DNA of 64,000 nt from a virus (IMGVR_UViG_3300032285_003468:5214-69213), one strand, 5' to 3'. Positions 1,709 through 63,867 are shown, counted from the first letter of the stretch. Notes: a model not told the origin generated them from the letters alone. A program made the numbers and translations.

Positions 1709-3874
1709 ATGAAATTGTTCTCTCTCCCAAACCTTACCAGTCACTCGGTCTCCATCGCCGACGACGTAACCCTAAGCACCGCCGTAAATCCCCGTCCAGG
1801 AAACCTGGACAAGAAGCAGTACAACGACTGGTGCAGAGCCTCCTCAACGCAGAGTAACTTTATCTCCGCATGGGAAGGTCTCAACCCCCAGGGACGTGTA
1901 GTAGCTCAGAACCCCGGCCGCTTGCTGCATGGGATCATTGCCGACTACGACAACCCCAACGCAACGTCACTTCTACAAGATCTCCCAAAGAACACCGGAC
2001 ACCTGCCGACATGGGTGATCGATAGCTTTACCCCCGGGAAGTGCCGTCTGATCTGGCCCTTCGAGGTTCCTGTCAACGCCTACAACCCGGAGCTGACAAA
2101 AACCTTCCTGAAGGTTCTCAACGAGAAGATCAAAATTAGCGAAGCACTGCCCGGATTTGATGAATCCAGTTGGAAAGATACTCAGTACTTCGAGATGGGC
2201 ACCAACTGGAGGAACGTCACCGGGGCCGCCCCAATCCCAGAAGCCGTTCTACTCCAATGCATGATGGAGGCAGGAATGCGCAAGCCTGTCGAAAGCGGCG
2301 ACGTCGAGATCCCCATGGATGTCGTTGCCGAAGAGGTGGAGAAGCGTTGGCCAGGTCGTTGGCCAGTTGGTAACTTCATGGAGGGTGCCGTAGGACCCCT
2401 CTTCTGGGTAGAGCCTTTCGTCAATCACCGTAGCTGCTCAGTCGCCGCCAACGGAATGATCTGCTATTCCGACCGCGCCGCCAGCAACTTCATGCCATGG
2501 CGTGCAATCTTTGGAAACAAGTTCGTCGAGAAATACGAGCTAGACCGCGCTGCCAAGCTAGCAGACATGTTCTGGTTCGACGGAAACAACTACTGGTCAG
2601 ATCGCAATACCCCGGGCTTCTGGAGGACTGTTAACCGAACCGACGCTCAGATCCCAATCAAGAAAGCCGGGTGCAACCCCAGGCCGAAGAAGGGTCAGCA
2701 GGTCTCAGAGGTTGAAGAAGTTCTCAACTACATCCAAGAGCAGCGCCGGGTGAACTGCGCGGTACCCCTCCTCTTCGAGAGTGAGAAGCTAGTCGAATAC
2801 AACGGAAAGCGACTCCTCAATATCTCCAGCAAGCAGGTAATGCAGCCAGCGGAATCCGGAGACCCGGAACAATTCCCTTGGATCTACGACTTCGTGATGA
2901 ACGCCTTTGACGGCGCACAAAGCGGTGTCCCGGCCAAAGAATACTTTATCGCATGGTTCAAGAGGTTCTACGAAAGCAGCTACCAGCAGGACCCACAACA
3001 GGGTCAGTCGATCGTCATCGCTGGCGAAGCACACGCCGGTAAGAGCTTCTTTGCCAACTGGATTATCGGGAAAGCAATGGGCGGTAGCTGCGATGCCTCC
3101 GATATCCTCCTGGGAAACACCAAGTTTAACGAGAATGCCGCACATAACGCCGTATGGCTCTGCGACGACGCAGTAGCCCAGGGCGACTTAAAGACACGCC
3201 AGGAGCTAGCCCTCCGTCTCAAGGCAATGGCAGCCAAACCAATGATGCGCTACGAACCCAAGTTCGTGAACGCAGTCGACCTACCCTTCAAGGGCCGGGT
3301 TATCGTCTGCGGAAACATCGATCCGGAATCCCTGCGCATCCTCCCCACCATGGACGGAACGATCAAGGACAAGATCATGCTCTTCCGTATCGACCCCAAG
3401 TATCGGCCGCATTTCTTCAACAAAAACTCCGACAACGAGAGCCGGGCGGTAAACGAATTACCCTTCTTCTTGCGCTGGATCCTCAACTACGAAGTAGACT
3501 CCAGGGTAGTAGACCGGGACAACACTCGCTTCTCAGTCAAGAGCTTCCACCACCCAACCCTCGTGTTAGCCGCAAACGTGGAACAGCCTGAGGCACGACT
3601 CGCCGAAATCATCTCTCTCACAATGGAGACGATCAAGGGAGACGTGAAGAAAGGGGCGGTAGTAACAATGACCTCCACCGAGTTCTGCCAGGCCGTCCAC
3701 ACAGCCCAGCTTAACTCCCACCTTCAACAACTTGGGGGAATCCGGAACGTTGGGAAATTACTTCACAAAGTGGTCGAACAGAAGTTATCACCTTTCCTGA
3801 CACAACAACCCAAAGTATCCGGCGGATATCACAAGTACACTTTCGACCCCCACGCAGAGGACATAACTCCATGA
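1709..3874 (+). CDS. Primase-helicase (N-terminal primase-like, C-terminal SF3/DUF5906-like NTPase)
   Basis: 721 aa directly after the polymerase; Walker A GEAHAGKS, Walker B VWLCDD; N-terminal IIADYD. Confidence 0.8.
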   Translation: MKLFSLPNLTSHSVSIADDVTLSTAVNPRPGNLDKKQYNDWCRASSTQSNFISAWEGLNPQGRVVAQNPGRLLHGIIADYDNPNATSLLQDLPKNTGHLPTWVIDSFTPGKCRLIWPFEVPVNAYNPELTKTFLKVLNEKIKISEALPGFDESSWKDTQYFEMGTNWRNVTGAAPIPEAVLLQCMMEAGMRKPVESGDVEIPMDVVAEEVEKRWPGRWPVGNFMEGAVGPLFWVEPFVNHRSCSVAANGMICYSDRAASNFMPWRAIFGNKFVEKYELDRAAKLADMFWFDGNNYWSDRNTPGFWRTVNRTDAQIPIKKAGCNPRPKKGQQVSEVEEVLNYIQEQRRVNCAVPLLFESEKLVEYNGKRLLNISSKQVMQPAESGDPEQFPWIYDFVMNAFDGAQSGVPAKEYFIAWFKRFYESSYQQDPQQGQSIVIAGEAHAGKSFFANWIIGKAMGGSCDASDILLGNTKFNENAAHNAVWLCDDAVAQGDLKTRQELALRLKAMAAKPMMRYEPKFVNAVDLPFKGRVIVCGNIDPESLRILPTMDGTIKDKIMLFRIDPKYRPHFFNKNSDNESRAVNELPFFLRWILNYEVDSRVVDRDNTRFSVKSFHHPTLVLAANVEQPEARLAEIISLTMETIKGDVKKGAVVTMTSTEFCQAVHTAQLNSHLQQLGGIRNVGKLLHKVVEQKLSPFLTQQPKVSGGYHKYTFDPHAEDITP

Positions 3875-4062
3875 AATACCGAATTACAAAAAACGGAAAC
3901 GACGAGTATTTTATCGAAAGGAAAGTTTTATTCAGTTGGGGCCGGGTAGGGGGAGTTTACGACAACTATCGATATTACTCTTTGCGGGGAGCCCAGGAAG
4001 CATTGAAAGAACTTCTAGGGAGCCGAAAGTTTACCGTCGTCTGGGAAGGAGAAGTCAAATGA
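3871..4062 (+). CDS. Hypothetical protein
   Basis: 63-aa ORF with ATGA overlap on the primase-helicase stop. Confidence 0.7.
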   Translation: MKYRITKNGNDEYFIERKVLFSWGRVGGVYDNYRYYSLRGAQEALKELLGSRKFTVVWEGEVK

Positions 4063-4277
4063 GCGCATACACCGAGACCAACTTCAACGCCTGCCTGGAT
4101 CACATCATCGAGATCAAGAACCAGCGTGACGAAGCGATCCGGATTGCCACCCTATTAGAAATGTTGGCCGAAGAGGATCTGCCGGAGTACCATCCGGAGT
4201 TCGGACTACTGGGGAAACGACTCTCGGACCTGAAGCTCAAGGTAATTGCGTACCAGAACAAGCTACAGAAAAAATGA
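4059..4277 (+). CDS. Hypothetical protein
   Basis: ATG at 4059 overlaps the previous stop (ATGA); 72 aa MSAYTETNF... Confidence 0.7.
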   Translation: MSAYTETNFNACLDHIIEIKNQRDEAIRIATLLEMLAEEDLPEYHPEFGLLGKRLSDLKLKVIAYQNKLQKK

Positions 4278-4713
4278 ATTTCGGAAGACAGACGGGTGTC
4301 CCGATTGGGGCTGCCACGAGTGCAAAATACAACGAGAACAAAAAAACCAATAGGTTATTTGAGGTCTTGGGAGTTTTGGGGAAACGCTCGGAACAACTTG
4401 AAGCAACCCGTCTGTCTTTCGTTCTCTTCTGGCACCGGTGGGCATCAACTTGCAGCTTGTGTAATGAAATGATTACCCGGCGTTAATAAAACGACGCCGT
4501 ATTTTTAACAGGGTCAGATAAGCACAGCATGCTAGGGTTACTATTCATAAGTGGTGGAAGTGCTTTACCATCAAAGTCTAGTAGGGTGTCCGGTTTATTC
4601 AGACTTGTCAGAAACTCTGTATAGTTTTTCCGTCAGATGTTCCCGATCGCGCACATTCGTTATGAGTTAACGATCATAAACAGGGATTATACCCGCTCGG
4701 TAATAAAACCCCA

Positions 4714-4771
4714 GAAAAGGCGAGTTAAGGCACCCGATCGGGGTTAAAACACCCGAAAAGGCGAGTTAAGG
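4714..4771 (+). repeat. 17-bp direct repeat GAAAAGGCGAGTTAAGG x2
   Basis: Exact copies at 4714-4730 and 4755-4771, just upstream of the promoter at 4809. Confidence 0.9.
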
Positions 4772-4808
4772 GGCCAAAAACGTAACGCAATCCAAGTTAA
4801 CGGAAACC

Positions 4809-4836
4809 TTGACAGATATTGATAAGTGCATAGGAT
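4809..4836 (+). promoter_or_regulatory. Sigma70-like promoter for the candidate ncRNA
   Basis: TTGACA (4809-4814), 16 nt, TAGGAT (4831-4836); no credible ORF downstream. Confidence 0.6.
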
Positions 4837-4840
4837 TTGT

Positions 4841-5111
4841 AACGCCTGACCACTTTGCGGCCAATGGACGCAGGAGCGAGGGCTTTGGATTCCTCCCGGG
4901 GATCTTCGGTGAACCGGTGCGCTGATCGAAAGGTTGGCCGTTAAAATCGGGGGAGGCAGTGAGGGGTCTTGCGTAGGCGGGCAAACCACCGTTGTGTTAG
5001 GCAAATGCCGAAGAGATAGCGACCTGACCCTCCCCCGACCCTTGTAGTAGTTCACAAGCATATCTCCGTTCACGGTAGCGTAAACGCTACAACCCTAGTG
5101 AACGATTTTTT
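4841..5111 (+). ncRNA. Candidate structured non-coding RNA, about 270 nt, with pseudoknot
   Basis: Several complementary helices (4843-47/4975-79, 4868-75/4967-74, 4921-27/4932-38 with GAAA loop, 4947-56/5029-38, 5013-20/5058-66, 5067-73/5098-5104); bounded by promoter and T tract. Confidence 0.6.
5067..5111 (+). terminator. Intrinsic terminator-like stem closing the ncRNA
   Basis: CGTTCAC/GTGAACG stem enclosing GTAGCG-TAAA-CGCTAC, followed by ATTTTTT. Confidence 0.55.
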
Positions 5112-5399
5112 GGGTTTTCGTGCATTAGATCATAGCCTAATCGAACCGACGATTGTTTAGATTATAGTCGATAGATGAAGCGTGAGTTGATTATCTCGCG
5201 CAGAAATAATCACCCATGAGGGGAATTCTAATACCCTGGATAAACAACCCGGCCCGATTGATTCGATCCGTTCGATCTCCGGTTTGCGTTTAAAGAAGAA
5301 GTTAAGTAATTGTTATATTGCAACCCTGCATCCCCGTGTCCCTGATCCATTATTTCCGATGTTTGCTAACATTGTGCAGGACTTAACTTTCCTGGGTTG

Positions 5400-5790
5400 C
5401 AGGGTTGCAGGGTACTTAACGTATTTATTCAACTAAAAAGTGGGGGATGTAATTTTCATCCACCATGGGTTTTGGCTCATCCACCAATTTACAAGACACT
5501 GTAGACAAGGACTTTGCGACAGCCCAGGTGGATTGGTGGATGAAGTGGGTCATTTTGGAACCGCTAATAATATGTAATGTGTATAATCATAATAATATAA
5601 CATCTATCTTTTTCTATATCTATTCTATTCTATCAATTTTAAACATTTTAATCCACTCATCCACCAATAGAAAAATAAATATATGAAAATCAAGGACTTA
5701 GCTTTGGTGGATGAAAATTTTTATATCCACCAGTTGATCCACCACATCCACCAATCGTCTTTGGCCTGTGTCTGGTACCCTGCAACCCTG
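5400..5790. repeat. Origin-like region: 16-bp inverted repeats around about 9 ATCCACCA-type iterons and an AT-rich core
   Basis: CAGGGTTGCAGGGTAC (5400-5415) and GTACCCTGCAACCCTG (5775-5790) are perfect reverse complements; ATCCACCA or TGGTGGAT near 5458, 5479, 5534, 5659, 5705, 5725, 5737, 5746; AT-rich 5565-5690. Confidence 0.75.
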
Positions 5791-6138
5791 TCGCATTTGT
5801 GCCCGGCGACCCGGTACCTAGAAAGCCCCGCCGTGGCCCGTATTGCCGCCCAGGACTCCTCGGAACGTCTCAATAAGGTGATGACAGCGGACCCACCCCA
5901 TTTTACTCAGACGGCTTTTTAAAATGCCCCGTAAACGTCTTTAAATTGTCTGTATCGAGTTTTTCTCTGTTACCAGGTTGCCCTGGTGCAGGGTTTTTGT
6001 CCGGCCTGGTCAGCCAGCCTGGGGTTTGTATACCGGAACATCCGGAACAAAAATTTTGCTAACCCTTCATTCTACTAGCGCTGCCTCGTGGGAGCCCCCT
6101 ACCCACCCAGGGGACGGCGGGGGGTCCTGGCTCTCTGA

Positions 6139-6771
6139 TCAGACACAACCTGGGCCGGTCGCGTCGGGGTCGTCGTCAGAGTCGGAACCGGGTTGGGTAC
6201 CCGGTGCCCCCCTCTGTAGGACCGGGGTTGGTGACGCCTCGGTGACGCATTCCTCCACCATCAGACCCTCGACTATGTCATCTTGCGAGGCCCGGAGTCG
6301 GTCGTTGACTACCTGAAGCTGAACGATGGTGGATGCCTTGCTCTCCTCTGTATCGAGGCCCAGAGCCCGGCGCGTCAGGTCGTCGAGGATCTTCATATCC
6401 TTCCAGTTTCGGGGCGGTGCGATCACCGACTGCGAGAAGATCTTGAAAAACTTGTCCGCCGCCCTCTCCCGGTAGCTTTTGGACAGGGTCTCAAGGTCCG
6501 TTGTAGATGAAGCGCCGGGTCCCGGAACCAACACTCCCTCATTAAGCTGTTCCGAAAGAGAGGAATTCTCTGCAACCCTGTTTTCATGCGCCCGGGTGAC
6601 CTTTTGAATCTTATTCGCGAGTCTCTGGGGAGTGTTCCAATGCTCCCGGGATGATCGCATCCGGATTGTGTGGGGAGAGATGTTGAAGAGCTTGGCGACT
6701 TCCTGTTGGCTGGTGCCTTTTTCGCATGCTTCGCGGATCTCTTTCCAAGGTACGTTTAGAGCTTTTCCCAT
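6139..6771 (-). CDS. Terminase small subunit-like HTH protein
   Basis: N-terminus WKEIREACEKGTSQQEVAKLFNISPHTIRMRSSREHW has the typical TerS HTH pattern; acidic disordered tail. Confidence 0.7.
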   Translation of the reverse strand: MGKALNVPWKEIREACEKGTSQQEVAKLFNISPHTIRMRSSREHWNTPQRLANKIQKVTRAHENRVAENSSLSEQLNEGVLVPGPGASSTTDLETLSKSYRERAADKFFKIFSQSVIAPPRNWKDMKILDDLTRRALGLDTEESKASTIVQLQVVNDRLRASQDDIVEGLMVEECVTEASPTPVLQRGAPGTQPGSDSDDDPDATGPGCV

Positions 6772-6797
6772 GAGGTGTTATGTGGTGGAGGCGTTGC

Positions 6798-6826
6798 CTC
6801 ATACCCTGCAACCCTGCATCTGTCAA
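6798..6826 (-). promoter_or_regulatory. Putative terS promoter with a CCCTGCAA repeat in the spacer
   Basis: Minus strand TTGACA (6826-6821), 17 nt, TATGAG; the spacer is the TACCCTGCAACCCTG motif also flanking the origin-like region. Confidence 0.45.
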
Positions 6827-6884
6827 CACTGAAATCCTGCGACCGGGAGGCAGGTTGCAAGGTTACCGGGCATGGAGAGTTACC

Positions 6885-7052
6885 ATGAACAACTTGATCA
6901 ACATCCTCTTCTTCTCCTTCATCATCCTGACCATTGCCGCTGGCGCTTGCTTCATCCTCTCCGCTGTCCTTGCAAGCCCTGTCCTGCTTGTCACTTGCTT
7001 TGCTCTCTTTGTTTTGGAGTTGTTCCTCGGCCTGATCATCTCCTGCCTCTAA
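6885..7052 (+). CDS. Small membrane protein
   Basis: 55 aa, almost entirely hydrophobic (MNNLINILFFSFII...). Confidence 0.6.
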   Translation: MNNLINILFFSFIILTIAAGACFILSAVLASPVLLVTCFALFVLELFLGLIISCL

Positions 7053-7101
7053 ATCACCCGGCATTAACTACTGACAGAACATCAACCCCAACCCTGAAAC
7101 C

Positions 7102-7332
7102 ATGACCAACATCAAGAAAGCCCAAGTTGAAATTGCCCACGCCATCCGCGCCTACATCAAGGAAGCAAAGAGCCGGGGCGTAGTCGGGGTGACCCTCGAT
7201 CACCTCTTCCTTTGCGTCCCTGCTGTCCCGGAGGCTTACCGCGCCTTCGCCGGGACCAACGGACGCTACTTCTACAAGCAGGAATTCTACGTTGTCGCCG
7301 GGAAGGTTGCCCGTCACTTCCTGATCGGCTGA
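7102..7332 (+). CDS. Hypothetical early protein
   Basis: 76 aa between repeat copies 7056 and 7332. Confidence 0.8.
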   Translation: MTNIKKAQVEIAHAIRAYIKEAKSRGVVGVTLDHLFLCVPAVPEAYRAFAGTNGRYFYKQEFYVVAGKVARHFLIG

Positions 7333-7360
7333 CCCGGCATGTAACCCTGAACACCTCACC

Positions 7361-7453
7361 ATGACCACCACCATCCAACCTCGCCCACCTATCGGAGCCG
7401 CTGAATACTCACGCATTCTTCAGGCTAAAATCGCCTCCGCTCGTAAATCCTAA
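7361..7453 (+). CDS. Small peptide, 30 aa (MTTTIQPRPP...)
   Basis: ATG 29 nt after repeat 7332 with CACCATG context; below ORF-track cutoff. Confidence 0.55.
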   Translation: MTTTIQPRPPIGAAEYSRILQAKIASARKS

Positions 7454-7473
7454 CCCCAACACCCTGAACCACC

Positions 7474-7623
7474 ATGCATAGCATCCAAGAAATCCGATAC
7501 GCTAATTTAAACGCGGCCCGAAAGGCCCGGGCCCGGGCGCTGGTAAAGCGCCGCGAGGCGGCCCAGAGGGTGATTGCCGAGAGGCTCGCCATCTCCCGGG
7601 GAATCCCTGTCTGCCACCGATAA
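7474..7623 (+). CDS. Small basic protein, 49 aa (MHSIQEIRYAN...)
   Basis: Same A/C-rich leader (CCCTGAACCACCATG) as its neighbours. Confidence 0.6.
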   Translation: MHSIQEIRYANLNAARKARARALVKRREAAQRVIAERLAISRGIPVCHR

Positions 7624-7650
7624 GTTAACCTCCAACACCTGAACATCACC

Positions 7651-7926
7651 ATGAAGATTGCCTACTTTAACCGCTTCCACATTGAACTTCCCGAGGATGC
7701 CGTCCGGGATTGCCACCATCAGGGTGCATGCGATCAAGACGTTGCCCATTGGCACCGCAAGTTGCCCGACCTCTTCGCCGGGGTCGACGCGGATGAGATC
7801 CGCTCCGAGTTGGCCGAGTATGGCGCATGGGACGCGGAAGAACTCGCGGACCCGGTGGAGAATGAGAAGCGCCTTCTCTGGATCGCGGCCGGGAACATCC
7901 AAGAAGAAGAGCGTCTGGAGGATTGA
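7651..7926 (+). CDS. Hypothetical early protein
   Basis: 91 aa, acidic, ELAEYGAWDAEEL; stop followed by repeat 7931. Confidence 0.8.
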   Translation: MKIAYFNRFHIELPEDAVRDCHHQGACDQDVAHWHRKLPDLFAGVDADEIRSELAEYGAWDAEELADPVENEKRLLWIAAGNIQEEERLED

Positions 7927-7975
7927 GTCCACCCGGCATGTAACCCTGAAGACCTGAACCCCAACACCCTGAACC

Positions 7976-8104
7976 ATGAAGACCATCAAGAACCTCCTTA
8001 TCGCCCTGTTCTGGGCACTCCTGATCCCGGTGATCGCTATCTCCCTGACGCGCTGGATCCATCAGCATGACCTCGCCATGGAGAGGGCCTACTCTGGGAA
8101 GTAG
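7976..8104 (+). CDS. Small single-TM protein, 42 aa
   Basis: MKTIKNLLIALFWALLIPVIAISL...; flanked by repeats 7931 and 8106. Confidence 0.7.
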   Translation: MKTIKNLLIALFWALLIPVIAISLTRWIHQHDLAMERAYSGK

Positions 8105-8157
8105 CACCCGGCATGTACTGCTGACAGCACCTGAACCTTCAACCCTAACACCTGACC

Positions 8158-8370
8158 ATGAGCCAACATCACCTGAACTCCTACTGCATCGTCCGCTTCG
8201 TCCACAATGTCGGCCGCGACATTGTCCTCCGGGGCCTGACCTACGAGGAAGCACTCGAACATTGCAACGATCCCGAGACCTCCTCCACCACCTGCTCCCG
8301 GGAGACCTCAAAGCGTCTCGACCTCGTCGGGTTTGATTGGTTCGACGGGTTCGAGAGGGAGTTGATCTGA
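8158..8370 (+). CDS. Hypothetical early protein
   Basis: 70 aa; stop codon overlaps repeat 8370. Confidence 0.8.
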   Translation: MSQHHLNSYCIVRFVHNVGRDIVLRGLTYEEALEHCNDPETSSTTCSRETSKRLDLVGFDWFDGFERELI

Positions 8371-8420
8371 CCCGGCATGTACTGCTGACAGCACCAACCC
8401 TTCAACACCTGACCCTCACC

Positions 8421-8723
8421 ATGAAAAACCTGTTCCTCATCTCTCGCACCTTTGATGTCGTCACCCCCGAAAGCGCCCAAGAGGGGGACATTGCAGATAG
8501 CGGTTTCATCTTCAAGGACCGCCCGGCAACCCTCCGGGAGTGCCTCGACGAGGTGAAGACCCTCGGCGGGATCGACTACCATGACGGGGAGAACTTCTAC
8601 CCCTGCGACTCCTCGGTCGACTACTGCACCGGGGAAAGCACCCGGGAGTTTGTCCACATTCGCGCCCTGACTCCCTCCGCCGGGAGAGCATGGAACCGGG
8701 CGCTCGCCATCGTGAACCTCTGA
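8421..8723 (+). CDS. Hypothetical early protein
   Basis: ATG 8421 after standard leader; 100 aa; stop overlaps repeat 8723. Confidence 0.8.
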   Translation: MKNLFLISRTFDVVTPESAQEGDIADSGFIFKDRPATLRECLDEVKTLGGIDYHDGENFYPCDSSVDYCTGESTREFVHIRALTPSAGRAWNRALAIVNL

Positions 8724-8769
8724 CCCGGCATGTACCGCTGAACACTTAACCCTTCAACACCCGACCATC

Positions 8770-9105
8770 ATGTTCACAAGAAAACAATACCTCGACCGGG
8801 AGTGCAATCACCGGGAGTACTACGCGCAATTTGTCACGCCCGGCGTGAAGCAAAGGGTACTCCAACGCTTCGGGATCGATGCCCTGAAGGCGAGTGAGGA
8901 ACCCTCCTTCAACGACCTCCCCCTTGCGGTATGGGACAGCCTCCTCGTCCCGGTCCCTTCGGAGATCGCCTCCAAGCTCCGGGAGTGTGGCGACTATGCC
9001 ACCCTTTCGGGATGCGTCTGCATCCTGAAGGAAGCCGCCCGGCAACTGGTGGAAGCCCGATCCACCCGGCATGTAACCCTGAAGACCTCAACCCTAAAAC
9101 CCTGA
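8770..9105 (+). CDS. Hypothetical early protein, reads through repeat 9064
   Basis: 111 aa; CGA sits where a TGA would precede the repeat. Confidence 0.8.
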   Translation: MFTRKQYLDRECNHREYYAQFVTPGVKQRVLQRFGIDALKASEEPSFNDLPLAVWDSLLVPVPSEIASKLRECGDYATLSGCVCILKEAARQLVEARSTRHVTLKTSTLKP

Positions 9106-9110
9106 CCACC

Positions 9111-9299
9111 ATGCAAAAGATGATCGACAACCTAATCAACGGCAACCTCCTCGACGCCCGCAAGGCGGCAAAGCGCTACGGGTTCATGAAGATCCGCCAG
9201 CACATGCTCGACCTCGGATACCCGGAGTCGGAGGCCAACGCCACGGCATGGTATCTCAAAGGTCTCATGACCTTCCAGAGGTACTGCGACTCGAAGTAG
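9111..9299 (+). CDS. Hypothetical early protein
   Basis: 62 aa MQKMIDNLING...; between repeats 9064 and 9301. Confidence 0.8.
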   Translation: MQKMIDNLINGNLLDARKAAKRYGFMKIRQHMLDLGYPESEANATAWYLKGLMTFQRYCDSK

Positions 9300-9350
9300 C
9301 ACCCGGCATGTATCCCTGACAGCACTTCAACCTTCAACACCCTGACCACC

Positions 9351-9677
9351 ATGACCAAAGCAGAAGAACTCACCATCCTCGACTCCGCCATCAACAAACT
9401 TGGGGCCGATAGCTACCTCGGACCTTGGCTCAACGAGATCCGCAACGAGGTCGAGGGCCTGATCCGGGCCGACCTCTTCCCTCACCTGTCTCTCGACGCG
9501 GCCCGCAAGAATGCCGCCGAGACCCGCGAGGATGCCCGCCGGGATGCGGAGGCAATCATCAACTCTGCCAAGGTGAAGGCGGAGAGCATCGAGGACCACG
9601 CCCGGAGATTGTCCGGGGAGATCCGCCAGAGGTGCGCTCACCTCCTCCGCGAGTCCCTCGACTCGCTCAAGGTCTGA
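9351..9677 (+). CDS. Coiled-coil early protein
   Basis: 108 aa, helical Ala/Arg/Glu-rich C-terminal half; between repeats. Confidence 0.8.
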   Translation: MTKAEELTILDSAINKLGADSYLGPWLNEIRNEVEGLIRADLFPHLSLDAARKNAAETREDARRDAEAIINSAKVKAESIEDHARRLSGEIRQRCAHLLRESLDSLKV

Positions 9678-9721
9678 ACCACCCGGCATGTACTGCTGAC
9701 CACCTCAACACCCTGACCACC

Positions 9722-9946
9722 ATGCAAGCCACCATCGAAAACATCGACCACCTTACCCGGGACGAGCAGACAGCAGTCAAGATTGTCGCCAGCACCATCA
9801 ACACTCCGATCAAGTGCAAGAGCCGGGAGGATGCCCTTAACTGGACCCGACTCCTCGAACCTTGGTTCATCTACGAGGGAGGCAACCACCTCGCCGTTCA
9901 CCGGGCTAGTGGAGACACTCGCAGAATCCTGATCGTCACCCTTTAA
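9722..9946 (+). CDS. Hypothetical early protein
   Basis: 74 aa MQATIENID...; ATG 41 nt after repeat 9681. Confidence 0.75.
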   Translation: MQATIENIDHLTRDEQTAVKIVASTINTPIKCKSREDALNWTRLLEPWFIYEGGNHLAVHRASGDTRRILIVTL

Positions 9947-9966
9947 ACTTCAACCCATCAACTATC

Positions 9967-10242
9967 ATGACCACCACCACCCAACACCTGATCGCAGTCG
10001 TCGTAAAATATCTCGGAGCAACTAGCTTCCGGGGGTCTCGCGTCAAGCTATCTCTTCCCCGGTTCAAAGCCTCCAAGACCATCTCCTACGATTATTCCTT
10101 CAACTCCTCGGAGGATATAGCGGAAGCCTACCTCAATAAGAACGGCATCGTCCCGGTTGGCGAGGCGGATCTCGGGGATGAACACCTCTTCCTCCTCTCC
10201 TGGGATGACATCAAAAAAGTCGAGTCGGTCCTCCTTTCCTGA
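9967..10242 (+). CDS. Hypothetical early protein
   Basis: 91 aa with KYLGATSFRGSRVK; A/C-rich leader, no repeat. Confidence 0.8.
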   Translation: MTTTTQHLIAVVVKYLGATSFRGSRVKLSLPRFKASKTISYDYSFNSSEDIAEAYLNKNGIVPVGEADLGDEHLFLLSWDDIKKVESVLLS

Positions 10243-10265
10243 ACCTTCAACCCCTGACCATCACC

Positions 10266-10502
10266 ATGAAAGCTATCTTCACCACTTATCAGCACTCCAC
10301 CATCGGCTTCCCCAAGGTCATCTTGAAATGGCATGAGGAGAACGGCAAGGCCCTCGGCGCTTATGTCACCCGGGACGGCATCATCATTGGCCCTTGGGCA
10401 TGGCACAACGACAACCCGGTGCCATTCTACCCGGCGGAGATCGAGCGCTTTGACCATCATGTCCGCGCTCAATATGCGGACGACCCGAGCGTGCAAGGCT
10501 AA
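10266..10502 (+). CDS. Hypothetical early protein
   Basis: 78 aa, standard leader. Confidence 0.75.
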   Translation: MKAIFTTYQHSTIGFPKVILKWHEENGKALGAYVTRDGIIIGPWAWHNDNPVPFYPAEIERFDHHVRAQYADDPSVQG

Positions 10503-10548
10503 AGCCACCCGGCATGTATTGTTGAACCTTCAACCCCTGACCACCACC

Positions 10549-10833
10549 ATGATCACCGCACAAGAACGCAAGAATGAAGTCGACATCCTCGACTACGAAC
10601 CCTACCTCGACAAGTACGGCAACGTGAAGCAGTACGGCCCGGACGAGATCCCTGATGCCCTGCATCCCTGCACCATCTGGACGTGTCTCGATGCCGGGTG
10701 CGAGTGTGACGCGGAGGAGGCTATTGACTGCGAGTGCGAGCCTGTCCGCATTGTCGCCGGGAAGCATTATGTCAACCGCTTGTATTACGTCATCACCCGG
10801 AAGCCTTGGGTGACTGGCGACGAGTGGGAGTGA
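10549..10833 (+). CDS. Hypothetical early protein
   Basis: 94 aa with two CEC motifs and HYVNRLYYVITRKPW; between repeats 10507 and 10839. Confidence 0.8.
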   Translation: MITAQERKNEVDILDYEPYLDKYGNVKQYGPDEIPDALHPCTIWTCLDAGCECDAEEAIDCECEPVRIVAGKHYVNRLYYVITRKPWVTGDEWE

Positions 10834-10887
10834 AATCCACCCGGCATGTATTACTGACAGCAACCTAACCCTAACCAACCCACACCA

Positions 10888-11262
10888 ATGACCACCACGC
10901 TTAACCTTAAAGACCTAGCCACCAAAGCAATCGTCGACTGCGACCCTGAAGATTACGTCGATCAGATCCACAACGCTATCCGCAAACCTGTCCGGGAATT
11001 CATCGATCAACTCCTCGCCGAGGAGGGTGTGCCCGAGTCTGGTAGTGGTTGGCAGATCGGAGACATTGAACTCCTGCTCGTGAAGCGCGACGCGGGTTAC
11101 GTCCCGAGTGTCCGCTCCCCGGAGTTGGATGCACCTGCTAGCACCTACGGCGAGGGCACCGAGGAAGAGGACCCGGCCGAGGCGCTGACCTTCGGGCTAT
11201 CAGATGCCCTTGCCTACGAACTCGCGGCCGAGTTGTCCCCGGAGGATGAGGACGAGGAGTAG
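10888..11262 (+). CDS. Highly acidic early protein
   Basis: 124 aa, D/E-rich C-terminus; between repeats. Confidence 0.8.
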   Translation: MTTTLNLKDLATKAIVDCDPEDYVDQIHNAIRKPVREFIDQLLAEEGVPESGSGWQIGDIELLLVKRDAGYVPSVRSPELDAPASTYGEGTEEEDPAEALTFGLSDALAYELAAELSPEDEDEE

Positions 11263-11304
11263 ACCACCCGGCATGTATTACTGACACCTAACCAACCCAC
11301 ACCC

Positions 11305-11505
11305 ATGAGCAAAGCAACCACCTATCCCATCGAACTCACCAAGACAGAATTGGAGGCCGCGATCTTCGCCGTCGATCAGATGCTTCAAACCATCGAGTCG
11401 GACGACGAGTTGTCCAAGGACCCCCGGATGGCCAGGCAATACCGGGCCCTGAAAAAGGCTTATACGAAACTCTACCTACCAGCAGTCCACGCATTCATCT
11501 CCTAA
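11305..11505 (+). CDS. Hypothetical early protein
   Basis: 66 aa after repeat 11266. Confidence 0.75.
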   Translation: MSKATTYPIELTKTELEAAIFAVDQMLQTIESDDELSKDPRMARQYRALKKAYTKLYLPAVHAFIS

Positions 11506-11514
11506 CCAATACCT

Positions 11515-11649
11515 ATGACCACCATCAAGAAAACATCCATCCAAGCCTCCGGGCTCTTAATCGTCGGGCTGACCTTCGTCGGCTTCGTAGCCATCGTACC
11601 CCTCACGATGTTCACCATCTCTCGCATCATCTACTGCTTCTACAAATGA
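11515..11649 (+). CDS. Small membrane protein, 44 aa
   Basis: MTTIKKTSIQASGLLIVGLTFVGFVAIVPL...; stop overlaps next ATG. Confidence 0.6.
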   Translation: MTTIKKTSIQASGLLIVGLTFVGFVAIVPLTMFTISRIIYCFYK

Positions 11650-11993
11650 TCCCGGACCCTAACGCACTGGACCCCTGCGACCCTGATTCTCCGCAACCCG
11701 AGCGCCGTGTTAAGGAACTCAAGCCCGGGGTTGTCTACCGCGTCCTCTGCGCGGAGTGGGAGAGCAATGTCAAGCCGGTCCGCCGGTGGGACTACGGCAT
11801 CCTCAACGAGGAGACCGGAGGTCTATATCTCACGTCCGGGGGTTGCTATCCTTCCGACTGGATCCCCGAGGAACACTACTGGATCGAGGAGACTGATCAT
11901 CCGTTCGAGGAGTATGTCCCCAAGGTCAGGAAGGGCATGGCTCATTCCCGGGCAGTCGGGGAATACTGCGAGTCCCGGAACTGGTACGATTAA
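11646..11993 (+). CDS. Hypothetical protein
   Basis: 115 aa, ATGA-coupled to the previous ORF. Confidence 0.7.
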   Translation: MIPDPNALDPCDPDSPQPERRVKELKPGVVYRVLCAEWESNVKPVRRWDYGILNEETGGLYLTSGGCYPSDWIPEEHYWIEETDHPFEEYVPKVRKGMAHSRAVGEYCESRNWYD

Positions 11994-12064
11994 ACCTGAA
12001 AATCTTACTTGGCATGTATAGGTGACAGCAAACCCTTAACCCTTACCCCTGACCACCGACCATC

Positions 12065-12283
12065 ATGAAACAAAAGATCAAACGTCTGGCCGAAAAACTC
12101 GGATGTAAATTTACCGACGAAACTCCCGGCGACCAGGTGATCTATGTCGATGCCCCGAAGGGTATGTGGTTCCAACATTCCTTCGAGGATTCTCTGGTCT
12201 ACGGGCTGGAGGAAGATCGCTCCGGGAGTCTTCGTGAATGCTACGAGGCCCTGAAGATGGGTCTCATCCCGGCGAGAAACTAG
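12065..12283 (+). CDS. Hypothetical early protein
   Basis: 72 aa between variant repeats 12007 and 12282. Confidence 0.8.
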   Translation: MKQKIKRLAEKLGCKFTDETPGDQVIYVDAPKGMWFQHSFEDSLVYGLEEDRSGSLRECYEALKMGLIPARN

Positions 12284-12332
12284 TCGGCATGTATTAGCGA
12301 ACCAACCACCACCAACCCACACCGCCCGCACC

Positions 12333-12560
12333 ATGAAATACCGCATCGAAGGCACTCACCGGAACCGCACCTCGTATGTCCTCACCGGGGAGGGGACCAA
12401 CGAAAAGATCCTGTTCGTGATCGAGCGGGAGGATAGCCACTTCATGAACTCGGTCACCGGATCGACTTACATCGTCCGGAAATGCGAGACCCACCACGAT
12501 AGCTTTCTGGCCGATAGCTGGAGAGAGGTGGCTCAGAAACTTCACGCCCTGCTTTCCTAG
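12333..12560 (+). CDS. Hypothetical early protein
   Basis: 75 aa between repeats 12282 and 12569. Confidence 0.8.
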   Translation: MKYRIEGTHRNRTSYVLTGEGTNEKILFVIEREDSHFMNSVTGSTYIVRKCETHHDSFLADSWREVAQKLHALLS

Positions 12561-12617
12561 TCGGTCTCACCCGGCATGTACTAGCAAACACCAACCCACC
12601 AACCCACCACCCGCACC

Positions 12618-12926
12618 ATGACGACACTTCTCAGCAAACCCGTTCGCCGCAAAACCCGCACGACCCTTGGATGGGGTTACGGCGCTGACACCGGCCGCCA
12701 TCTGGTGGTCACGATCGAGTCGTCCAGCAAGGGCGACACCCTCAAACTGCGCCCCCTCGGGACGCGCCGCGAGGAAGCGGTCCTGATCGAGGACATCTAC
12801 CATTGGGCGATCCGTAGCCGTTGCCAGAAGGCGCACCTTGAGAAGGCCCGCGCCCGGAAGGAGGCCCTCCGCGCTCGCCGTGAGGCCGCCGAGATCCGAC
12901 GTAGGTTCCGGGTCACGATCAAGTAG
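12618..12926 (+). CDS. Basic early protein
   Basis: 102 aa, Arg/Lys-rich; follows the last repeat. Confidence 0.8.
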   Translation: MTTLLSKPVRRKTRTTLGWGYGADTGRHLVVTIESSSKGDTLKLRPLGTRREEAVLIEDIYHWAIRSRCQKAHLEKARARKEALRARREAAEIRRRFRVTIK

Positions 12927-12961
12927 TCGGACAACACTCACCAACCCCTAACCCCACACCC

Positions 12962-13537
12962 ATGACCACACCCACCACCAAGCTAGCAGTCCTCCCCCGG
13001 TTCCCGGGATTCTACGAGTCCATCCTCACGAGCATCATCGACCGGGAGATGGAGTACGAGATGCAAGAGAGCGGAGACAACTACGACGAGATCGAGAAAC
13101 GTTTTGATTACGGCGAGGCAATGGAGTCGGTAGCCCGGGGATGGGTGCAAGCCTTTGCCCAGGAAACCGGAGTGCCTGTGGAGTTTGAGAGTCTCAAGTC
13201 TCCGCGCCAGTACAATTTCACTACCGACCGGGTCTATGTCTTGTTGCCCGAGTCCTATGTCATCAAGATGCGTGAGGAGGTAGACCCAAACACCCTCCGG
13301 TCCGTTGTCGAGAAATACTTCACCAGTTGCGACGGGTTCATCTCTCACTACTCGCCTGACATCGAGGACGATTCTTGGAAGCGCCCGGTAACCGAGTGGG
13401 ACCACAATGAACTCATGGCCTTGCTGGATGCTTGGCTGACCGACCTCGGCCATGACGATTGGGATTTCGAGGAGACCCTTTCCGACAATCCCCTTGTCTA
13501 TGAATCCGCGCAAGGGGGATGGAAACAAATCCCTTGA
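12962..13537 (+). CDS. Acidic phage early protein
   Basis: 191 aa with FPGFYES, SPRQYNFTTDRVYV and FTSCDGFIS motifs I recognise from phage early regions; function unknown. Confidence 0.85.
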   Translation: MTTPTTKLAVLPRFPGFYESILTSIIDREMEYEMQESGDNYDEIEKRFDYGEAMESVARGWVQAFAQETGVPVEFESLKSPRQYNFTTDRVYVLLPESYVIKMREEVDPNTLRSVVEKYFTSCDGFISHYSPDIEDDSWKRPVTEWDHNELMALLDAWLTDLGHDDWDFEETLSDNPLVYESAQGGWKQIP

Positions 13538-13586
13538 CCAATCACCACACACCACCACACACTAACCACCCTACCTTAAACATTCT

Positions 13587-13772
13587 ATGCACGACCCGAC
13601 CCTCGATGCCGCGTTGGCGTTTGTTCGCCGTCAGACACCTCGACTTTGGATCCGGCTCTTTGAGCCCCATCCGACTTCGCAACCATTGCTTAACTGGAGT
13701 CCCTTCCTCATGCACCTGGAGCAGCGCGGGCTGATTGGATCACCCCGGTATCAATCCACTATCACGCCATGA
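13587..13772 (+). CDS. Hypothetical protein
   Basis: 61 aa after an A/C-rich leader. Confidence 0.6.
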   Translation: MHDPTLDAALAFVRRQTPRLWIRLFEPHPTSQPLLNWSPFLMHLEQRGLIGSPRYQSTITP

Positions 13773-13942
13773 ACCGCCCACCCTCACGCAAGCACATAGC
13801 CTCTATGAATCAACGGATCAAAGAGTTTGAGACTCGCGCATCCGGATCCAACTCAAACCCCTGTAGGGTGTGGGTATCTGAAATTGATCATCACAAATTC
13901 ACCGGAAATTCCAACAAACCAACCCCTAATAAATCCGTATGA
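13769..13942 (+). CDS. Hypothetical protein, 57 aa
   Basis: ATGA overlaps with neighbours at both ends. Confidence 0.5.
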   Translation: MNRPPSRKHIASMNQRIKEFETRASGSNSNPCRVWVSEIDHHKFTGNSNKPTPNKSV

Positions 13943-49914: not shown

Positions 49915-49938
49915 ACGGTTTGGTAATCATCTCCCGGA

Positions 49939-49968
49939 AGAGTCAGGGGTTTTTAGGCCCCTGACTCT
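49939..49968 (-). terminator. Hairpin downstream of major capsid gene
   Basis: AGAGTCAGGGG (49939-49949) pairs with CCCCTGACTCT (49958-49968). Confidence 0.6.
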
Positions 49969-49983
49969 CATTGGGAGGGTGGA

Positions 49984-57290: not shown

Positions 57291-57510
57291 TGTGTCACCG
57301 GAAAACTGAAAAAACCGGTTTTGCTAGCGGAAAATTCCGGAGCCTACGGGGCTCGAATCTGAAACCGCATATACCAGTAGTACAGAAATGCATAAGGGTT
57401 GATGATACCTTTTCAGAGTAAATGGTCAACCGGTTTCATATACCCGTACCACAAAAAGATGCAGGTATGCACCACTTTTTCCGTTGACAGGCGTCACCAT
57501 CTGTCACCAT
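57283..57510. mobile_element. Putative attP: tRNA 3'-end core with GTCACCAT arm-type repeats
   Basis: Minus strand 57357-57338 TTCGAGCCCCGTAGGCTCCG matches a T-loop, T-stem, acceptor strand and discriminator G; GTCACC(AT) pairs at 57283/57294 and 57493/57503. Confidence 0.75.
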
Positions 57511-57530: not shown

Positions 57531-58697
57531 ATGAAGACCAAAAAACCCGTCGAATATCCGTTCGTGCAATCTACGCCGTTCGGGAAAGTAAAAATCTATC
57601 GCAACTCCGAGGGAGAGCGCATTCGCTACATCGTGGCGTGGATCGACGCCGATAAAGGCCGCCAGAGGAAAGCGTTCGAGGACGAAGCCCAAGCACATCA
57701 GCGGGCCGAAGAGATTATCGAAGATTTTAAAAAGGGAACCAGCTTTCGCAACAACATCACCGCTGCCAAAGCCGTCCGCATCGCCGAATACGAAAAACTT
57801 CTTGGCGAACACAACGCCACGCTGGCCGACGCCGTCAAACACTTCCTACTTCACATAGAGCGCCAAAACGCCAAGAAAATTCTTGCGGCCGATGCAGTCA
57901 CGAAATTCCTAGAAAGCATCGAGGACAAGAAAACCCGGCACTACGATACGGCGAAATCCGTGTTAACAAAATTCGGCCGTTCTTTTAACAAAACACTCTG
58001 TTCCATCACGCTGGACGAGCTGGACCGCTATTTCCGGAGCGTGTCCCAAACAGGGCGCACTCGAAACAATCACCTCGGGTACGTAAAAACGTTTTTCAAA
58101 TGGGCCCAAGAATGGGGCGGCTACGTGCCCGAAGGTAAAATGCTGATCGAAAAAATAAAACCCTACGAGGAGCAGTCTTTCAAAATCGAGGTGTTCTCGC
58201 CGGACGAAATCAGCAAGCTCCTGAATGCGGCGACCGATAAACTGCGGCCGTACCTGGCTGTCGGAGCTTTTGCAGGAGTTCGTTGCGCCGAGATCTCCCG
58301 GCTCAACTGGGAAGACATTGATTTCGAGACCCGGTCAATTAAACTCTCATCCGAGGTGACCAAAACCAAGCGTCGCAGATTGGCCGCCATGTCAGATAAT
58401 CTGATCCAATGGCTGAACACGCACACCGGGCCAAAAACCGGTCCTCTGGTAGCCGTACCGACCCGGCTGCATAAAGACATAGCCCAACTATGCAACGAAG
58501 CCAAAGTTGCGTGGAAAGATAACGCACTTCGCAAGAGCTACATTTCCTACCGCATGGCCCAACCCGATGCCGACGCCATCCAGGTGTCCAAGCAGTGCGG
58601 AAACAGTCCCGCCATGGTGGAGGAGCACTACAAAGAACTGGTATCGCCAAAAGTAGCAGAAGAATGGTTCTCGGTGTGCCCTACCACTTTACTATGA
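57531..58697 (+). CDS. int: Tyrosine integrase
   Basis: FAGVRCAEI..L.WED, TKT, NALRKS, GNS..V..HY; adjacent attP-like site. Confidence 0.93.
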   Translation: MKTKKPVEYPFVQSTPFGKVKIYRNSEGERIRYIVAWIDADKGRQRKAFEDEAQAHQRAEEIIEDFKKGTSFRNNITAAKAVRIAEYEKLLGEHNATLADAVKHFLLHIERQNAKKILAADAVTKFLESIEDKKTRHYDTAKSVLTKFGRSFNKTLCSITLDELDRYFRSVSQTGRTRNNHLGYVKTFFKWAQEWGGYVPEGKMLIEKIKPYEEQSFKIEVFSPDEISKLLNAATDKLRPYLAVGAFAGVRCAEISRLNWEDIDFETRSIKLSSEVTKTKRRRLAAMSDNLIQWLNTHTGPKTGPLVAVPTRLHKDIAQLCNEAKVAWKDNALRKSYISYRMAQPDADAIQVSKQCGNSPAMVEEHYKELVSPKVAEEWFSVCPTTLL

Positions 58698-61980: not shown

Positions 61981-62201
61981 GCGACACTAAAACGGCGATC
62001 AAGCTATCCAAACGCCCTTATTACTATGAGTGCGGAGATGGATGTTGCACCGAATGGGGAGAAACTTGGTATGTAGACGGCGTAGAGGTTTGCTCTGGCC
62101 CATGCGACGACAACAGGCTCCAACAACTTTTGGATCACCTTGGGTTTGATGCCCGTATCATCAACGAAAACGAAGATGGCGAGGAGGTATGTGAACTATG
62201 A
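61977..62201 (+). CDS. Hypothetical protein
   Basis: 74 aa with ECGDGCC. Confidence 0.7.
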   Translation: MSDTKTAIKLSKRPYYYECGDGCCTEWGETWYVDGVEVCSGPCDDNRLQQLLDHLGFDARIINENEDGEEVCEL

Positions 62202-62521
62202 ACCCATCCACAACACCCAACAACGAGGTCGCAAGGCTCCGTGAGCGGTTAGAAAAAGCCGAAGAACTAATCCGAGGTCTGCACGATGGATGGAAGAAAG
62301 CAAGAAAAGCTCACCTTGAAACCTGCAAAAATGCCCAAGCTGAAATCGACAAGCTCCACACAGAAAACATCTGCCTACAAGAACTCATCCAAGAATTCTA
62401 CGAGTGGTCTCGGCGAGACTACCCGACCGAAGCCGAAGTCCGAGAGATCATGGATCGCTACTACAACCTACTAAACCACAACTCGAACAATAAACCCTCC
62501 CAGTTTACTGAAACACCATAA
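62198..62521 (+). CDS. Mosaic coiled-coil protein (NEVARL family)
   Basis: 107 aa, shares DNA blocks with 62585 and 63511. Confidence 0.7.
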   Translation: MNPSTTPNNEVARLRERLEKAEELIRGLHDGWKKARKAHLETCKNAQAEIDKLHTENICLQELIQEFYEWSRRDYPTEAEVREIMDRYYNLLNHNSNNKPSQFTETP

Positions 62522-62584
62522 GTTTACTCACCAGTAAAAAGCTACACAACCAATAAAAACATCAACAACGCATTTAATAAGAAT

Positions 62585-63514: not shown

Positions 63515-63867
63515 ACCCCGACACCTTTAACAAGGCACTAGACGCTTGCGTTGAGTACAGAAAGCAGATTGACGAGAAAACCAACGAGGTCGCAAGGCTC
63601 AAGGAGGAAAACGCAAACCTTAGAGGAACCTTAAAATCTTTCGTGCTTGTTTCTCCGATTGAAGCCGAGCGCATGGAAAAAATGGAACAAGAATACGAAA
63701 GGCTCAAAAAACTAATGCGAAACTACATTGATTTCATCGACGCAAACATGGGAACAACTGCCGATTGGCCTATGGAAGCCGCATTCGATGACGAAACTAC
63801 AGCGCAACGCCATTGCGATTTACTGAACGCAATGAAGCGTGAAGTTAAGCCCGAAGACATCAACTGA
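63511..63867 (+). CDS. Mosaic coiled-coil protein (NEVARL family)
   Basis: 118 aa, start MNPDT shared with 62585. Confidence 0.7.
   Translation: MNPDTFNKALDACVEYRKQIDEKTNEVARLKEENANLRGTLKSFVLVSPIEAERMEKMEQEYERLKKLMRNYIDFIDANMGTTADWPMEAAFDDETTAQRHCDLLNAMKREVKPEDIN

Follow-up and report, generated by a model that had tools for sequence, protein, structure and literature searches.

The question raised by this locus is what a short, exactly repeated piece of DNA does when it heads one small gene unit after another in the accessory block of a phage. The locus lies in a window of 64,000 nucleotides (nt), comprising bases 5214-69213 of a 69,213-bp IMG/VR virus record (IMGVR_UViG_3300032285_003468, here G000); coordinates are those of the window unless stated otherwise, G000 and G001 denote phage genomes, and L-numbers denote loci of relatives or of other phages and hosts. 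The element is the 12-mer ACCCGGCATGTA, hereafter the word, which occurs in 12 exact copies, all on the + strand between 7332 and 12569, whereas 100 shuffles gave an expectation of 0. We favour, with clear reservations, the reading that the word is a compact unit promoter, read via a specificity factor for which no gene was recognised.

When up to two mismatches were allowed, the window held 19 matches, against 3.73 expected in shuffles. Seven of them lie beyond the exact copies, and four of these are in the same block and on the same strand (6865, 7056, 12007 and 12282); the remaining matches, at 10688 (− strand), 33830 and 52312, are at chance level. A preliminary description of the locus had listed the 12 exact copies and the variants at 7056, 12007 and 12282, which is borne out, except that the fourth variant, at 6865, was missed; a two-mismatch match in the 113-nt gap that holds it is expected about 0.003 times, as scaled from the shuffle count. 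That description also found all copies on the + strand and none elsewhere in the window, and this extends to the whole 69,213-bp record, which has no further forward copy and no reverse copy, leaving the other 63 kb empty. All copies are thus found within 5.7 kb (6865-12587), where they head 15-16 small gene units.

The conserved element is larger than the word itself. In an alignment of 15 copies the information jumps at the first base of the word and is maximal through its 12 bases, after which a 4-nt spacer is weakly conserved and pyrimidine-rich with C at its fourth position, followed by T in 13, G in 14 and A in 15 of the 15 copies. As described before, TGA stands exactly 4 nt past the 12-mer in 13 of 15 copies, the exceptions being CGA at 12282 and CAA at 12569, and the A that lies 7 nt past the 12-mer is invariant (15/15). 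Past the TGA the conservation tapers via a semi-conserved stretch such as CAGCAC. Compared pairwise, the 12 exact copies have a mean identity of 1.00 over the 12-mer, 0.43 over the spacer and 0.89 over the TGA, which falls to 0.29 in the 20 nt upstream and 0.445 in the 20 nt following the TGA. Since the 12-mer is identical while its flanks are only 29-45% alike, the word is held by selection, and the copies would be old enough to have diverged wherever this is allowed. The word is asymmetric and non-palindromic, and the abrupt onset of conservation at its first base, together with the downstream taper, indicates that the element belongs with the leader and the gene that follow it. Subtypes of spacer and leader recur at non-adjacent copies (7332, 7931 and 9064; 8106, 8370 and 9681).

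The placement of the copies is equally regular. Except for the copy at 9064, the element follows the previous stop codon at −2 to 13 nt. Its start lies 29-58 nt before the next ATG (20 nt for 6865). All 16 copies point along the genes, and 15 of them stand between genes; every gene of the block points the same way, and orientation with transcription is therefore indistinguishable from a fixed strand. Junctions with the element measure 28-71 nt, and those without it −4 to 35 nt, mostly 9-27 nt. The leader past the TGA is 10-39 nt, that is, at least as long as the typical gaps of 9-27 nt at element-free junctions, and since a full leader remains past the TGA, the element is best seen as an insert between a stop codon and a normal leader. 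The exceptional copy at 9064 lies in gene 8770-9105 (phrog_25437), in which element and leader encode a 14-15-residue C-terminal tail. Homologues of this gene cover about 85% of the protein and mostly end about 15 residues earlier, which indicates that the gene reads through into element and leader; its original stop codon would have been lost or overrun.

Features of the repeat block and its head, in window coordinates
Feature	Position	Strand	Remark
Degenerate head copy ACCGGGCATGGA, without TGA	6865..6883	+	20 nt ahead of the block's first gene; in the region divergent with the HTH gene
Variant ACCCGGCATTAA-N4-TGA, without ATG	7056..7074	+	two-mismatch scan
Exact copy	7332..7350	+	first base overlapped by the upstream stop; unit of 3 ORFs
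Exact copy	7931..7949	+	exact scan
Exact copy	8106..8124	+	exact scan
Exact copy	8370..8388	+	exact scan
Exact copy	8723..8741	+	exact scan
Exact copy	9064..9082	+	within the last 14 codons of gene 8770-9105
Exact copy	9301..9319	+	exact scan
Exact copy	9681..9699	+	unit of 3 ORFs
Exact copy	10507..10525	+	exact scan
Exact copy	10839..10857	+	exact scan
Exact copy	11266..11284	+	unit of 3 ORFs
Variant ACTTGGCATGTA-N4-TGA	12007..12025	+	two-mismatch scan
Variant AGTCGGCATGTA, CGA replaces TGA	12282..12300	+	TAG one codon earlier closes the ATG frame
Exact 12-mer, CAA replaces TGA, last copy	12569..12587	+	TAG one codon earlier closes the ATG frame
Block of 23 small ORFs	6885..13537	+	30-191 aa; A/C-rich leaders without Shine-Dalgarno sequence; no counterpart in relatives
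Head region	6772..6884	.	− strand promoter TTGACA-N17-TATGAG for the HTH gene; inverted CCCTGCAA pair
210-aa protein, N-terminal HTH	6139..6771	−	transcribed away from the block; kept in relatives without the word

HTH, helix-turn-helix; ORF, open reading frame; aa, amino acids.

The genes of the block were called by hand, as the first ATG past each leader and with no gene finder. Their 23 proteins are mutually unrelated (best BLASTP E 0.017) and all end in clean stops. Two of the 23 match PHROG families, both of unknown function, which back two of the gene calls; the other 21 are ORFans, with no PHROG match among eight scanned and weak sub-threshold Pfam matches in four of 18 scanned, and for the 111-aa protein no close relatives were found. 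The labels early and host-takeover that the preliminary description gives to these genes are thus assumptions. The earlier picture of the array, in which each copy sits at a stop, 29-58 nt before an ATG and across an A/C-rich leader, and in which one to three unrelated ORFs of 30-124 aa make up each unit, is therefore confirmed, including the exception at 9064. About 4.7 kb of further + strand genes follow the last copy without any word. G and T are nearly missing from the leaders of the array, in which no further ATG, GTG or TTG occurs. This is in line with the rest of the phage, where no gene across the whole genome is preceded by a Shine-Dalgarno sequence, leaders are A/C-rich and G-poor, and ACC often precedes the start (e.g. 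12927-12961 and 49915-49983).

The word brings its own ATG into this setting. In all 14 array copies that have the ATG, its frame closes after 0-2 sense codons, through TGA in nine copies, TAA in three and TAG in two, the last being the two copies without the fixed TGA. In 4/14 (8106, 10839, 12007 and 12569) this ATG shares the reading frame of the gene that follows, and the ATG-less variant 7056 sits in the same frame as its downstream gene. We read the stop as one that may neutralise an unavoidable start codon on read-through transcripts. Since the TGA is kept where a TAA already closes the frame, and since the leaders of the two TAG copies are related, this stop role is not the whole reason for the fixed TGA.

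The same features could suit an element acting at the RNA level on a polycistronic transcript, as a nuclease or RNA-binding site, or as a start-stop mini-ORF that catches and releases ribosomes, which we regard as unlikely. The closed frames, the TAG placed one codon earlier in both TGA-less copies and the leaders without another start codon are what a mini-ORF would need, and since terminator-like sites in the block do not exceed chance and none is found at any junction, read-through transcripts must carry the word. However, folding of the 15 copies with their flanks gave z-scores of −1.85 to +2.51 and no common helix, a mini-ORF leaves the seven invariant bases before the ATG unexplained, and the context of the ATG in the word, CCGGC-ATG, differs from that of real starts, which is mostly ACC-ATG. 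Moreover, the related leaders of the two TAG copies make them count as one event, and the three copies with TAA keep a TGA that the frame does not need.

An ordinary promoter is also lacking. No sigma-70-like site scoring at least 9/12 was found on the + strand of 5900-13600, and the head region contains only weak + strand sites of this type; only two inverted repeats occur in the block, neither at an array copy, and one of them flanks the head region beside 6865. The earlier observations that the element has no sigma70 consensus and no hairpin thus hold. Clear sigma-70-like promoters are found elsewhere in the phage, namely at int 57484 (+), at terL 57429 (−), before the HTH gene and at 4809 (+). 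In two relatives the equivalent region has one strong + strand site, TTGACA-N17-CATATT in G001, where it lies directly upstream of a long small-gene operon, and TTGACT-N17-TATATT in L041. Since the + strand gene run of G000 extends over 10 kb, has no such site and is equipped with a head promoter in these two relatives, some promoter must exist here, and a degenerate copy of the element stands 20 nt ahead of its first gene.

Several known promoter types were compared with the word. A sigma-54 consensus has GG and GC exactly 10 bases apart, with a −24 box TGGCAC/TG. The GGCATG of the word resembles this box and is followed, after a short variable spacer, by a second short block, as a host sigma-54 (−24/−12) promoter might be; yet GG-N10-GC occurs in 0/15 copies, the bases at that distance being TG, CG or CA (GA or AA at N11), Pfam scans gave no AAA+ activator, and no upstream activator site is conserved, all of which makes such a promoter improbable in the extreme. 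A promoter dependent on a class II activator with its −10 box in the leader was rejected, as the leaders are without TAnnnT, and NtcA-like GTA-N8-TAC sites and the −10 boxes of sigma-28 or sigma-32 have a partial likeness only, judged by their consensus sequences.

A common promoter word of the host was considered as well. The record ends carry a 123-base terminal repeat, the same 123 bases being found in G001, which is probably the overlap of a circular assembly. The phage has the markers of a temperate lifestyle, with an integrase, an excisionase-like protein and an attP-like core; the sole integrase (Int, 57531-58697) lies beside this core, 44 kb from the array. The core (57338-57358, − strand) is tRNA-3'-end-like and matches L044 3663-3683 and L045 1696-1716. 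Exact matches to it were found in two of 185,579 species genomes, both metagenome-assembled genomes (MAGs) of Chthoniobacterales, against about 0.3 matches of 21 nt expected by chance, and ARAGORN gave no intact tRNA at the matches in L044 and L045. The two matches suggest a verrucomicrobial host, or related integrative elements in those genomes, and on these two 21-nt matches the host is probably a member of the Chthoniobacterales (Verrucomicrobiota). Crude calls in the two genomes gave a Shine-Dalgarno-like sequence before only 4 of 30 genes, a sparse use which agrees with the leaders of the phage. A −10-like word, GGTATCAT, recurs in G000, in G001 (63281), in L054 and near the core match of L044.

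The search for CGGCATGTA-N4-TGA in 101 Chthoniobacterales genomes gave 11 matches against 6 for the reversed control, and the core word with TGA had 0 matches in both genomes holding the attP core. As the word is not enriched in Chthoniobacterales, a common host promoter word was rejected, although a test with the exact word leaves room for a small, degenerate regulon. Being unlike the sigma-70-type promoters of the phage and uncommon in the presumed host order, the word would need a special specificity factor.

Among the roles offered in the preliminary description, those of a promoter and of an operator fit all that was tested: the copies have one orientation, are intergenic, stand ahead of a full leader and are under strong selection in a block where no ordinary promoter is found. 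The view of the locus as an array for gene capture or shuffling found no such support, as discussed below. What inclines us towards a promoter is the geometry. Asymmetric and pointing along the genes, the word is joined to the leader downstream, and an invariant purine lies 7 nt past its end; this is the arrangement of a −10 block and a start site. Precedents are the short single-block promoters of phage sigma factors (PMC4331800) and the arrays, around homologues of gene 8770-9105, that have a promoter before nearly every small gene. It would then be a one-directional transcription signal at the DNA level that opens each unit of the ORFan-rich accessory block. As a single-block promoter, the 12-mer would lie at about −18 to −7, with its CATGTA core in the place of the −10 box and ACCCGG as an upstream extension, followed by six poorly conserved bases, and the transcript would begin with the conserved G or A of the TGA. 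Every transcript would thereby gain a complete A/C-rich, unstructured leader, which would replace a Shine-Dalgarno sequence. The reader might be a phage protein too diverged to be recognised, or a minor host sigma, acting on the host core polymerase, and the fixed TGA may have a second job in closing the ATG of the word and keeping read-through ribosomes out of the next gene.

Several points weigh against this reading. The word has no T at the −7 position and no −35 partner, and identity at 12/12 positions exceeds the conservation usually seen in promoters of the sigma type. In the lysogen of a temperate phage, 15 promoters of this kind would all need to be shut off. The palindromes at the junctions of L052 and L054, described below, look like operators or hairpins rather than promoters. 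Finally, Pfam and PHROGs scans of nearly all proteins of at least 100 aa and of many smaller ones detected no RNA polymerase, sigma domain or activator, at a sensitivity that a very diverged sigma, such as T4 gp55, could escape.

The last result extends to the whole genome the earlier remark that no phage RNA polymerase or sigma factor was visible, and a motif search agrees with it, as D-x-D-[GIA]-D, the polymerase motif, was absent from all frames in ORFs of more than 150 aa. No more than two proteins are longer than 800 aa: a polyvalent protein of 3041 aa, which has a kinase domain as its only Pfam match and only DSDYD as its nearest motif, and a protein of 1116 aa, which looks like a tail fibre; searches of PDB sequences with both gave no match. 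A single-subunit T7-like polymerase was rejected, there being neither a Pfam or PHROG match nor the polymerase motif.

One candidate for a DNA-binding reader is the HTH protein encoded at the head of the block, which may be a regulator or a small terminase. Its AlphaFold2 model is mediocre (mean pLDDT, the predicted local distance difference test score, 66.7), and Foldseek gave only generic HTH matches with E >0.9, that is, no match at E ≤0.001 and no solved repressor. The HTH protein, a ribbon-helix-helix (RHH) protein, the Xis-like protein and Int are 55-84% identical in G001, which has no copy of the word. A word of CCCTGCAA type recurs around the HTH gene in L010, L041, L050 and L054, and in G000 an inverted pair of CCCTGCAA (6803-6863) flanks the HTH promoter. 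Judged by its distribution, CCCTGCAA would be the binding site of a conserved family protein, and it is likelier than the junction word to be the target of the HTH protein.

These results bear on an operator role too. L5-type repressors dock at asymmetric 13-mers, as MrpR does at the 15-bp repeats of SPbeta, and the copies could likewise be stoperator-like repressor boxes, at each of which, in the lysogen, a phage protein would block initiation and elongation through accessory genes that may be harmful. We consider this possible, though less probable than a promoter. An asymmetric word in 15-16 copies, placed in short intergenic spaces at stop codons and on the strand of the genes in a temperate phage, is what such boxes would look like, and the degenerate copy at 6865 is located in the divergent head region. 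The word is also private to its lineage, as immunity-specific operators are, and the palindromes of L052, one of which follows TTGACT at the head while others stand at junctions, give the layout of an operator plus junction copies. On the other hand, the copies occupy a mere 5.7 kb in a genome of 69 kb instead of being spread throughout it, no promoter to be repressed is visible, and the 4.7 kb of + strand genes past the last copy have no box. In addition, all recognisable DNA-binding proteins (HTH, RHH, Xis-like and Int) are kept in G001 without the word, and the HTH model matched no solved repressor.

Comparison with relatives places the word in a wider context. With G001 (70,115 bp) the phage has its modules for replication, integration and structure in common, at about 70-85% aa identity (primase 79%), whereas in window 3874-13788 of G000 the HTH gene and one small ORF are all that is shared. 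In the equivalent block of G001, small genes with A/C-rich leaders again follow one another closely over a long stretch, but no junction word is present. The HTH protein has 35 homologues, and alignment of them led to ten related loci. The word was absent from G001, from three metagenome loci and from these ten loci. Viral contigs scanned for the exact 12-mer-N4-TGA had 26 stretches with one copy each, as many as chance would give; a scan of genome contigs with the primase alignment, and BLAST of the block against a phage collection, gave no match; and in 66 loci with homologues of gene 8770-9105, 24 matches at up to two mismatches in 378,842 bases are also at chance level. In the phage itself, G000-specific proteins (62198-63867; genome 61-1442) have the repeats EKTNEVARLRE, APAPEEPVI and FRTRRPLPKQE in common and no match in G001, and their sequences suggest a mosaic paralogous set with coiled coils.

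Some relatives have other words at the same place. L052 (1-10000, reverse strand) carries eight copies of the perfect 16-bp palindrome TATCCGATATCGGATA in the array flank, the first of them 8 nt past TTGACT at the head of the block and three of the seven further copies at gene junctions, according to ORF calls; two more, at 10620 and 11387, lie beyond the HTH gene. L054 (1-10000, reverse strand) has about 6-8 copies of CTTGTCCAG(A/T)CCGGACAAG, with 7-bp arms, directly after stops in the small-gene block. The words of L052 and L054 stand at the same type of junction, in the order stop, word, leader and ATG. A weaker hairpin-like repeat is found in L057, and at least six relatives examined (G001, L048, L050, L053, L055 and L056) have no junction word. 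Unrelated phages with a homologue of gene 8770-9105 (L092, L062, L101 and L058) also have arrays of their own repeated words around that gene, such as six near-identical sigma-70 promoters TTGAC-N17-TGCTATAATGC within 4.5 kb in L092 and ten copies of a 15-bp palindrome before genes in L101, and a promoter before nearly every small gene is a common layout around these homologues.

It is tempting to speculate that the family has swappable junction words, each with its own phage reader, so that G000 would hold a new class of single-block promoter, with a specificity factor unlike any known sigma factor or polymerase, where its sisters have palindromes or none, that these would form private, insulated circuits, and that the copies would serve also as joints for the gain and loss of units, but we hold this extension to be rather improbable.

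That the word is primarily a recombination site for gene cassettes, in the manner of integrons or of promoter early stem-loop (PeSL) elements, appears very doubtful. Unrelated ORFan units bounded by identical short repeats, in a region without counterpart in relatives, would suit the gene-capture or shuffling array of the preliminary description, and the subtypes of spacer and leader at non-adjacent copies fit exchange between copies. However, none of the 23 array proteins has a counterpart in any of 13 related loci, and the array copies have no attC-like inverted repeat or hairpin. No second recombinase was found, and Int, beside its own distant attP-like core, is 71% identical in G001, which is without the element. 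Twelve bases are short for homologous exchange. The one sample that holds the sequence, probably its source and available as contigs only, shows a single unbroken piece with no joints, which weighs for neither side. The scan of related phages that had been proposed, with breakpoints at the element in mind, gave no relative carrying it, and hence no breakpoints are visible.

Phages are known to place repeated regulatory words between accessory genes, and the word described here has no match to a known promoter class, operator or RNA motif. What is new is such a word in a probable verrucomicrobial temperate phage whose family fills the same slot with different words or with none. Phages of Verrucomicrobiota, the timing of their gene expression included, are almost unstudied. 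Here, a phage whose switch points have sigma-70-type promoters of the ordinary kind would drive or gate some 23 mostly ORFan genes by an odd word. If this is a promoter, a small phage protein must redirect the host polymerase, and 15 near-identical sites would be a clean bait for it; if the copies are repressor boxes, silencing of the stoperator type would extend past actinobacterial phages. With one asymmetric word, two palindromic ones and at least six relatives with none, the family is a natural comparison set for one slot, and the word offers a clean handle toward a new transcription specificity factor or repressor.

The array can be compared with several known systems. Integron attC sites have hairpin-forming inverted repeats that the word does not have, and an integron has its integrase, with attI and a promoter, at the array head, where this phage has an HTH gene. 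T4-type PeSLs are sigma-70-like promoters with terminator stem-loops (PMC2839356). The array resembles PeSL cassettes in having repeated regulatory units between non-essential ORFan genes of a hypervariable region, where such repeats could mediate shuffling (PMC2839356), but its units have neither a sigma-70-like promoter nor a stem-loop. The intergenic repeats of halovirus HF2 are promoters by reporter assay, 29-58 bp long with AT-rich boxes and genus-wide (PMC8707807); they too are conserved and stand before gene units, while the word, unlike these archaeal repeats, is private to one genome.

Closer in size is the SPbeta repeated element (SPBRE) of the Bacillus prophage SPbeta, a 15-bp sequence at the promoter regions of about 10 dispersed genes, which was for long a purely computational finding, until its reader, the recombinase-fold repressor MrpR, was described (PMC10516654). 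SPBRE and the element agree in length, at about 15 bp, and both recur between genes or at promoters in a temperate phage (PMC10516654), but the only recombinase here is kept in G001, which has no word. Stoperators are asymmetric sites of about 13 bp in short intergenic spaces, with an orientation that follows transcription, and Cluster A mycobacteriophages have more than 20 of them throughout the genome, bound by a monomeric repressor that combines an N-terminal HTH with a further DNA-binding domain (PMC9283540). With the Cluster A systems (L5 gp71 and the TipsytheTRex repressor) the array shares asymmetric 12-13-mers in many near-identical copies, a temperate phage and lineage specificity (PMC9283540), but its copies lie in one 5.7-kb block and have a fixed second block (TGA) 4 nt on, no two-domain repressor was found, and no promoter under their control is visible. 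Promoters of phage sigma factors are short, highly conserved single blocks, such as TAATGTATA in phiEco32 and TGATGT in 7-11 (PMC4331800). These two phages are lytic, with a recognisable sigma gene and about 6-10 such promoters genome-wide (PMC4331800), unlike the temperate phage described here, with 15-16 copies in one block and no sigma gene seen. Their promoters nevertheless resemble the word in being one-directional, upstream of genes and unlike host sigma-70 promoters, and an ATGT(A) core is common to them (PMC4331800).

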